Made by a program: the position numbers and the translations under genes. Shown here in pieces: positions 49,436-49,610 of a stretch of DNA of 64,000 nucleotides. Positions within the stretch are counted from its first letter, which is position 1, and each line of letters starts with the position of its first letter. Under the pieces are notes generated by a model. It was not told the origin of the DNA. It saw nothing but the letters and a program-made list of their open reading frames with translations, and did not search any database. Origin of the DNA: Opitutia bacterium UBA3534 (GTDB lineage: Bacteria; Verrucomicrobiota; Verrucomicrobiia; Opitutales; UBA3534); contig DFOT01000011.1 of the NCBI GenBank assembly GCA_002376875.1, positions 71,034-135,033 on the forward strand, given 5' to 3'.

Positions 49436-49465
49436 AAAAAAAACTCCCACTTCAAGGCGGGAGCT
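49436..49465 (-). terminator. Intrinsic terminator (attenuator) in the 5' leader of the NSS transporter gene
   Basis: Minus-strand RNA reads AAGCUCCCGCCUUGAAGUGGGAGUUUUUUUU. CUCCCGC pairs with GUGGGAG (7 bp including one G.U) around a 6-nt loop. The U8 tract is at 49436-49443. Only 14 nt (AGGACUAAUUUUCU) separate the tract from the transporter ATG at 49421. Confidence 0.65.
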
Positions 49466-49488
49466 TAGAGTAAAGTCATGTGTATGCT

Positions 49489-49554
49489 TTAACAACAGCT
49501 CACGCCTCTGCCAAGGAGGAGGAGAAGGAGGAGCTGTAGTAATAGCTTTTGCAT
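49489..49554 (-). CDS. Candidate 21-aa leucine-rich leader peptide MQKLLLQLLLLLLLGRGVSCC
   Basis: Below the ORF-track size cutoff, read by hand: ATG CAA AAG CTA TTA CTA CAG CTC CTC CTT CTC CTC CTC CTT GGC AGA GGC GTG AGC TGT TGT TAA. Ten of 21 residues are Leu, seven of them consecutive. No clear Shine-Dalgarno. Confidence 0.55.
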   Translation of the reverse strand: MQKLLLQLLLLLLLGRGVSCC

Positions 49555-49565
49555 ACAGGAGTCTT

Positions 49566-49594
49566 ATTCAAGGGAAAGACGACTCAACTGTCAA
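49566..49594 (-). promoter_or_regulatory. Possible promoter for the leader/transporter transcript
   Basis: Minus strand reads TTGACA (49594-49589), 17 nt, TTGAAT (49571-49566). The -10 is weak. A start about 7 nt downstream would leave the leader ORF nearly leaderless. Confidence 0.3.
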
Positions 49595-49610
49595 GAACGC
49601 TTAAATCGAG

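Follow-up and report, generated by a model that had tools for sequence, protein, structure and literature searches.

The 64,000-nucleotide (nt) stretch of DNA analysed here, called the window throughout, is part of contig DFOT01000011.1 of Opitutia bacterium UBA3534. On its minus strand, two co-directional genes are separated by a gap of 189 nt that runs from the stop of the upstream gene at 49611 to the start codon of the downstream gene at 49421. The upstream gene (49611..50690) encodes a 359-residue hypothetical protein with no Pfam or NCBIfam match. The downstream gene (47946..49421) encodes a 491-residue transporter of the sodium:neurotransmitter symporter (NSS) family. An earlier note on this DNA, made from the sequence alone, had placed the transporter in the NSS/LeuT family, and both Pfam PF00209 (E = 1.5e-57) and matches to solved NSS structures bear this out. 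The gap between the two genes holds a short, leucine-rich open reading frame (ORF), mutually exclusive RNA pairings and a terminator hairpin. This leader region, the subject of the present report, is probably a ribosome-mediated attenuator that controls the transporter gene in response to leucine.

The leader ORF (49489..49554, minus strand) begins with the ATG at 49554, ends with the TAA at 49491-49489, and comprises 21 codons plus the stop. Its product, MQKLLLQLLLLLLLGRGVSCC, has leucine at 10 of 21 residues, seven of which are consecutive. These seven residues are specified by the proposed regulatory codons, CUC CUC CUU CUC CUC CUC CUU (49513..49533), and three further leucine codons lie at 49537-49545. 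The run of seven is the longest leucine run in the six-frame translation of the whole 64-kb window. Segment 1 (49521..49537), which includes CAGCUC at 49536-49531, lies inside the leucine codons and is the 5ʹ arm of the 1:2 hairpin in the minimum-free-energy folds. Segment 2 (49495..49512) can pair either with segment 1 or with segment 3 (49454..49466). The core of segment 2, GGCGUGAGCU at 49506-49497, is complementary to that of segment 3, AGCUCCCGCC at 49465-49456, at 9 of 10 positions, and the complete antiterminator pairing joins 49508-49497 with 49465-49454. Segment 3 also provides the 5ʹ arm of the terminator (49466-49457), whose 3ʹ arm (49450-49441) forms segment 4 together with a run of eight U residues (U8; 49443-49436), the two spanning 49436..49450. 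In a terminator scan, the hairpin at 49466-49441 has 10 pairs, 5 of them G-C, and a 6-nt loop, and it overlaps the U8 tract. The leader stop codon is located 4 nt past segment 2, and an ORF on the plus strand lies opposite the leader region (49404-49604). When the sequence and the list of ORFs were read again, the anatomy described in the earlier note proved exact for the gap, the leader ORF and its leucine counts, the three segments including the 9/10 complementarity of segments 2 and 3, and the plus-strand ORF. The terminator and U8 that it had proposed were recovered by the scan, and the distance between segment 2 and the stop codon that it had reported holds.

Only 14 nt lie between the end of the terminator and the transporter ATG, a space in which no promoter fits, so the transporter would be expressed solely by read-through. 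Directly after the U tract is AGGA (49432..49435), the likely ribosome-binding site of the transporter, at a distance of 10 nt from the ATG at 49421. Upstream of the leader, the sequence can be read as a promoter-like element with the −35 hexamer TTGACA (49589..49594) and the −10 hexamer TTGAAT (49566..49571), separated by a 17-nt spacer and scoring 10/12. The end of the −10 hexamer lies 11 nt upstream of the leader ATG, a position that would imply a very short 5ʹ untranslated region of a few nt. Promoter matches of at least 9/12 at such a distance (−10 ending 6-11 nt before the ATG) precede 7 of 28 leaders, the window's included, compared with 1.8% of control ATGs. Additionally, the terminator scan found no terminator between the stop of the upstream gene and the leader; the leader could thus also be transcribed by read-in from that gene.

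The leader region is more than chance would give. As a 176-nt RNA, it folds with a z-score of −3.67, better than all 200 dinucleotide shuffles, and its minimum-free-energy structure consists of the 1:2 hairpin and the terminator. The alternative pairings were compared with a null in which the 45 nt between the leucine tract and the terminator were shuffled (n = 3000). The 2:3 duplex has an energy of −17.0 kcal/mol; the shuffles average −8.65 ± 2.16, and a fraction of 0.0005 of them do as well or better. The 1:2 duplex reaches −20.0 kcal/mol, compared with −10.4 ± 2.8 (fraction 0.003). Both pairings of segment 2 jointly were matched by none of the 3000 shuffles. Taken as single elements, the 1:2 hairpin, the 3:4 hairpin and the 2:3 region have energies of −19.2, −14.6 and −21.7 kcal/mol, respectively.

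The effect of a translating ribosome was modelled by folding the RNA from 49575 to 49436 with each of the 22 codons in turn as the A-site codon. A footprint extending 15 nt upstream and 13 nt downstream of that codon's first base was kept unpaired. The free RNA and the RNAs with the A-site at codons 1-2 and 14-22 fold with all 10 pairs of the terminator and none of the antiterminator. When the A-site is placed at any of codons 3-13, a range that includes leucine codons 4-6 and 8-13, the terminator is absent (0 pairs) and 7-11 antiterminator pairs form. Constrained folding of this kind had been called for in the earlier note, and it reproduced the predicted switch between terminator and antiterminator. 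The note's two mechanistic proposals are borne out by these folds: that a ribosome stalled on the leucine codons frees segment 2 for the antiterminator (A-site codons 3-13) and that a ribosome at the stop codon lets the terminator form (A-site codons 14-22).

In the proposed mechanism, the attenuator would tie production of the NSS transporter to how much charged tRNA-Leu is available. Transcription would start a few nt before the leader ATG from TTGACA-17-TTGAAT or would enter from the upstream gene. If the ribosome has moved undelayed to codon 14 or later, or if none has been loaded, segment 2 would be masked or paired with segment 1. With segment 2 unavailable, the 3:4 hairpin and U8 would terminate transcription 14 nt before the transporter ATG. 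A ribosome stalled on leucine codons 4-6 or 8-13 would instead cover segment 1, so that segment 2 would pair with the 5ʹ arm of the terminator. Once this antiterminator has formed, RNA polymerase would read through and the transporter would be made.

We infer that the leader is translated and that ribosomes stall on it at leucine shortage. As judged from its sequence, the element has every defining feature of a ribosome-mediated transcription attenuator that can be recognised at that level. The original observation is confirmed, and its interpretation as a ribosome-mediated leucine transcription attenuator, supported in silico, is probably correct. This interpretation is favoured because of the exact anatomy of the leader, the shuffle statistics, the thermodynamic switch, and the recurrence of leucine-rich upstream ORFs before homologous transporter genes.

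This recurrence was found in a set of 83 homologous loci, in which the 300 nt before each transporter start were scanned. An upstream ORF with at least 5 leucines in 8 codons precedes 17 of 61 NSS homologues (28%), compared with 2 of 107 other genes of the same loci (1.9%), an enrichment with a Fisher p of 6e-7. At least 6 leucines in 8 codons are found before 12 of the 61 homologues and none of the 107 controls. In 27 curated loci, a CU-rich tract of leucine and serine codons leads directly into a short hairpin, typically of the form cUUAGCC-loop-GGCUAA, with the variants UAGCCC/GGGCUA, UGCGCC/GGCGCA, UGGGCC/GGCCUA and UCGGCU/AGCCGA. This tract-hairpin motif has a covarying stem of 6-7 bp and lies 60-200 nt before the homologous NSS genes (L047:1844-1915, L040:1842-1913, L021:1814-1885, L065:1167-1237, L041:177-247, L045:1861-1931, L013:1859-1929 and about 20 further loci). 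No Rfam family matching the motif was found in the 12 homologous loci searched.

The family hairpin covaries, and the ORF that enters it keeps a fixed frame. Across 22 six-pair copies with 7 arm types, 129 of 132 cells are paired, whereas random exchange of hairpin partners pairs 101 cells on average and 116 at most; pairs 2, 3, 4 and 6 vary on both sides. When the reading frame of these 22 leaders is fixed from the register of the hairpin alone, 20 of 22 combine an ATG upstream with a stop that falls within the hairpin, compared with 2 of 22 and 0 of 22 for the other frames. Leucine accounts for 42% of the 12 codons before the hairpin in the register frame, compared with 19% and 6% in the others. 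Where the tract is not purely pyrimidine, leucine is kept as CUG or CUA, as in L041 (CUG CUG CUG CGC CUC UAG) and L044 (CUG CUA CUA GCC CUC UAG), a persistence that reads as a coding signature. Moreover, the ATG of several long leaders is preceded by a GGAG-type sequence. The curated set was partly picked by eye and was picked for the hairpin; the test for ORFs with at least 5 leucines and the frame test are independent of that choice.

The loci with such leaders come from varied genomes. L034 lies in a genome called "Chlamydiales bacterium," with a V-ATPase subunit I that shares 75% identity with its Neochlamydia counterpart, and L001 and L003 belong to metagenome-assembled genomes (MAGs) labelled Babeliales and Pseudomonadota. 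The evidence tips slightly toward the window element being one form of a broad, undescribed class of leucine leaders that governs one orthologous NSS group. Carriers of this class may include L034, L001 and L003 as well as the Verrucomicrobiota-like genome of the window. In what may be its commonest form, the last leucine codons enter a short covarying hairpin that holds the leader's own stop codon in a fixed frame, and the RNA beyond it is G-poor and U-rich. Such an arrangement, with the stop inside the hairpin, differs from that of the classical four-segment attenuator.

A covariance model of the family motif (R1) proved too narrow and was set aside, as it recovered its training set and scored other true instances at E values of 0.07-0.25. 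The window's own leader scores E = 4.6 with this model. Its best match outside the family, at 55258-55305 of the window (minus strand; 18 bits, E = 0.16), is a CT-rich stretch antisense to the ORF at 54757-55698 and on inspection seems spurious.

Several observations weigh against the attenuator interpretation, and the first of these concern conservation. No close relatives were found in a genome scan, a metagenome scan or a protein search, and the best transporter homologue is only 58% identical, which rules out aligning the leader at the nucleotide level. The leucine leader is absent from all nine of the nearest or named homologous loci that were fetched (L086-L094; the nearest at 53-58% identity). 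The leaders of other lineages have their stop inside a single hairpin, a layout unlike that of the window element. In a neighbour-joining tree, leader-bearing transporters are scattered, and the window transporter falls in a clade mostly without leaders. The four-segment design of the window may represent an independent or strongly remodelled version, and the family leaders appear to support a theme of leucine control more than homology of the window's exact structure. Conservation of the leader and its pairings, which the earlier note had proposed as a check, is thus not seen among the nearest homologues, a result that neither refutes nor clears the proposal, and holds only at the level of the transporter family as a recurrence of leucine-rich upstream ORFs. 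The only strain variant (L005) differs from the window at 94 of 6476 positions (1.45%). Two of these differences fall within the 189-nt gap, at 49480 and 49468, and affect bases left unpaired by both conformations; the overall divergence would predict as much, and the result is not significant.

Further counterpoints concern the expression signals, the codons and the transporter itself. The −10 hexamer of the leader lacks the usual A at position 2, and the promoter-like match was not called by the program scan, whose rule demands an A there. No Shine-Dalgarno (SD)-like 4-mer occurs within 20 nt upstream of the leader ATG. This absence is weak evidence against translation because SD use is low across the genome, as an SD-like 4-mer precedes 10 of 40 long ORFs of the window compared with 18% of random 16-mers. 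The CUC and CUU codons of the leader are common rather than rare in the host genome. Additionally, the transporter matches LeuT and the dopamine transporter at E values of about 1e-32 (residues 3-454), and its motif in transmembrane helix 1 (TM1) is GSAVGFAN, compared with GNAVGLCN in the LeuT variant aligned and GNAVGLGN in wild-type LeuT. Assignment of a substrate from the transporter sequence was rejected on these grounds, the similarity to LeuT being too low and the TM1 motif different.

The main rival explanation, though unlikely, is that the hairpin and U8 are a plain terminator of the 359-residue protein gene, with constitutive leaky read-through into the transporter and with the leucine ORF and the pairings incidental. 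The upstream gene has the required orientation, no other terminator is present between its stop at 49611 and the hairpin, and the nearest homologues of the transporter have no leader. Nevertheless, a terminator in this place, 145 nt past one stop and 14 nt short of the next ATG, would keep the transporter permanently short of transcripts. The explanation also leaves to coincidence the double complementarity of segment 2, which no shuffle matched, the exact overlap of the window's longest leucine run with segment 1, and the enrichment of leucine-rich upstream ORFs before homologous NSS genes.

A second rival retains the hairpins of the attenuator and leaves the ORF untranslated, with the switch operated by a trans-acting factor such as an RNA-binding protein specific for the CU tract, an uncharged tRNA or a small ligand. 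The missing SD sequence before the leader ATG fits this explanation, as does the tract itself, a pure pyrimidine CUCCUCCUU repeat that is a plausible protein-binding or anti-SD-like sequence. There is also a precedent in the actinobacterial LEU element, for which regulation was unaffected by mutation of the leucine codons and a protein factor was suggested (PMC1262725). This explanation is quite improbable when set against the homologous leaders, which keep their frame, upstream ATG and in-frame stop relative to the hairpin, retain leucine as CUG or CUA where pyrimidine purity is lost, and in the long leaders have GGAG-type sequences before the ATG. Moreover, no Rfam family, T-box or riboswitch reaches threshold, and the low use of SD sequences throughout the window's genome diminishes the weight of the one missing here.

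The mode of action of the hairpin-type leaders in other lineages bears on a third rival. In six loci (L055, L065, L041, L045, L054 and L001), the leucine tract can pair with the SD sequence of the transporter at −9.8 to −17.5 kcal/mol, and tracts pair better with the SD sequence of their own locus than with those of other loci (permutation p = 0.017). A partition-function test of 28 leaders found no general gain in SD accessibility with a ribosome on the leucine codons. General unmasking of the SD sequence by a stalled ribosome was rejected, given the lack of a systematic gain and the restriction of strong pairing to about six loci. Two roles of the family hairpin as a terminator fared no better: an adjacent U run is present in only some copies, so that it is not generally a canonical terminator, and in at least 13 loci the nearest upstream ORF is divergent, which rejects a role in terminating transcription of a gene upstream. 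Downstream of the hairpin, the next 40 nt contain 6% G and 49% U, a composition that would fit a delayed terminator or a Rho site. The hairpin-type leaders may work by sterically blocking a single terminator or pause hairpin, through Rho, or by pairing with the SD sequence. For the window, it is very improbable that the CU-rich tract acts post-transcriptionally as an anti-SD sequence or as a C-rich, G-poor Rho loading site masked by ribosomes, with the terminator secondary: the tract-SD pairing in six homologous leaders and the G-poor, U-rich RNA past the family hairpin speak for such a role, but the window tract pairs with just 4 nt of its SD sequence (UCCU with AGGA), the predicted accessibility of that sequence is unchanged by a leucine stall (0.53 free, 0.48 stalled), and the strong canonical terminator needs no Rho.

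Three other features were noted in the regions upstream of homologous NSS genes. A second conserved stretch, (A/G)AUUAGCAA(R)N(U)GCUUUUUC, follows the hairpin in L021 (about 40-70 nt downstream), L025, L026, L003 and L020. Its UUAGC is complementary to the 3ʹ arm of the first hairpin, GCUAA, and the two are paired in a constrained fold of L021; the stretch may be a segment 3 or 4. In L007 (about 1870-1975), and also in L012 and L076, a long near-perfect inverted repeat, GGGGTCAGACGTGCATAACTGCAAAACTC ... GAGTTTTGCAGTTATGCACGTCTGACCCC, is found just before the NSS start, with partial duplication in L007 and L076. It may represent a mobile element, a repetitive extragenic palindromic (REP)-like element or a very strong terminator. 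In several chlamydial loci (L091, L092, L093, L007, L012, L014 and L033), the NSS gene directly follows a gene for a protein of about 800 residues that ends in a repeated ...FEGEY...KHGKFNKYFDDG... motif. The gap between these two genes is about 35-155 nt long and has no leader, and the arrangement represents a different conserved synteny.

With regard to the substrate, the codons of the leader point to import of leucine or other hydrophobic amino acids by the transporter. A homologue with 57% identity to the window transporter is encoded on a metagenomic contig (L088:3006-4476). It is directly followed by a gene for a BrnQ-type branched-chain amino-acid carrier (PF05525) and then by a gene for a 978-residue class-I aminoacyl-tRNA synthetase, and ribonucleotide reductase genes lie upstream. 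The BrnQ neighbour in this one homologous locus was counted in favour of both the leucine attenuator and a hydrophobic substrate.

The genomic setting of the window was assigned from PriA (50796-53093), the best named matches of which (about 60% identity) are from Rubellicoccus, Cerasicoccus and Coraliomargarita, members of the Opitutales/Puniceicoccales Verrucomicrobiota. The host thus belongs to the Planctomycetes-Verrucomicrobia-Chlamydiae (PVC) bacteria and is not chlamydial, and the PVC setting assumed in the earlier note stands. Protein identical to the transporter is found only on contigs of one population, including GCA_001372055.1. The named homologues of the transporter are from Chlamydiales and Parachlamydiales MAGs (53-54% identity, with 58% for the closest homologue of all), and further homologues, at most 58% identical, are found in MAGs labelled Babeliales. 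A Verrucomicrobiota-like PriA alongside a transporter with chlamydial relatives suggests that the transporter gene may have been acquired by horizontal transfer, with which the data are compatible.

Elsewhere in the window, ARAGORN identified a tRNA-Arg (CCU) at 42588-42661 (minus strand), which also passes the Rfam gathering threshold, and a tRNA-Tyr (GUA) at 54024-54109 (minus strand), which does not. The 1262-residue product of an ORF at 43173-46961 (plus strand) has no Pfam or NCBIfam match. Across the whole window, only a tRNA lies above the Rfam gathering score. A search of 48900-50100 at E values up to 10 found no Leu_leader (RF00512), other curated leader, riboswitch or T-box.

Confirmation of the attenuator would mean that ribosomes stalling on hungry codons govern uptake in addition to synthesis, and the locus would offer a rare case of cis-regulation open to direct testing among PVC and other uncultured bacteria. 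For a large NSS subgroup that is uncharacterised, the leader hints at leucine or another hydrophobic amino acid as the substrate. Should the class of leucine leaders be real, host-dependent bacteria reliant on imported amino acids would read tRNA-Leu charging directly to set uptake. The recurrent form in other lineages, with the stop inside the hairpin, could be a new mechanistic variant.

Leader-peptide attenuation is textbook knowledge for biosynthetic operons of Proteobacteria, and the trp, leu and his attenuators follow the same stalled-ribosome logic as the folding outcome in the window. The enterobacterial leaders trpL, leuL, hisL, thrL and ilvL share with the window element a short ORF with tandem regulatory codons, four segments with 1:2, 2:3 and 3:4 pairings, and a Rho-independent terminator with a U run. 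In both, the position of the stop codon lets a ribosome terminating there mask segment 2, and the 1:2, 3:4 and 2:3 pairings follow the same order of energy. The distance from the regulatory codons to the end of the U tract, about 90 nt, is the same as in the trp leader. However, the classical attenuators are enterobacterial and govern biosynthetic operons, whereas the window element precedes a single NSS transporter gene in a Verrucomicrobiota-like marine bacterium. Unlike the classical leaders, that of the window apparently has almost no 5ʹ untranslated region and has no SD sequence, and its regulatory leucine codons, CUC and CUU, are common ones. The element has no sequence or structure match to the Rfam Leu_leader.

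Other described systems resemble the window element in part. Comparative genomics alone underlies the prediction of His-leader attenuators for the histidine ATP-binding cassette (ABC) transporter genes hisZYX of Erysipelotrichaceae and Peptostreptococcaceae (PMC9413887). As in the window, a leader peptide with tandem codons and a terminator/antiterminator pair precede a presumed cognate transporter; the two differ in amino acid (histidine versus leucine), transporter type (ABC versus NSS) and lineage (Firmicutes versus PVC). In the Staphylococcus aureus ilv-leu operon, a leucine-rich attenuator peptide works together with CodY (PMC5794164). There, as predicted for the window, a translated leucine-rich leader peptide governs downstream transcription, although the S. 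aureus target is a biosynthetic operon of a Firmicute and that of the window a PVC transporter gene. Upstream of the actinobacterial leuA, the leucine run of the LEU element's upstream ORF pairs with the SD sequence, by a mechanism that is disputed (PMC1262725); such pairing is seen in six homologous NSS leaders and not in the window. In actinobacterial ilvB leaders, the regulatory codons overlap the terminator hairpin (PMC1262725), much as in the family hairpin with its internal stop. Both actinobacterial elements control biosynthetic genes, in contrast to the transporter of the window. The literature was not found to describe leader-peptide attenuation for NSS/LeuT-family transporters, for Verrucomicrobiota, or for Chlamydiae beyond work on the trp operon. 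The earlier note knew of no such description for NSS transporters or in PVC bacteria. Attenuation of a transporter as such has its precedent in hisZYX. Compared with all of these systems, the mechanism is classical, and what is new lies in the target gene, the phylum and the recurrence across the family.

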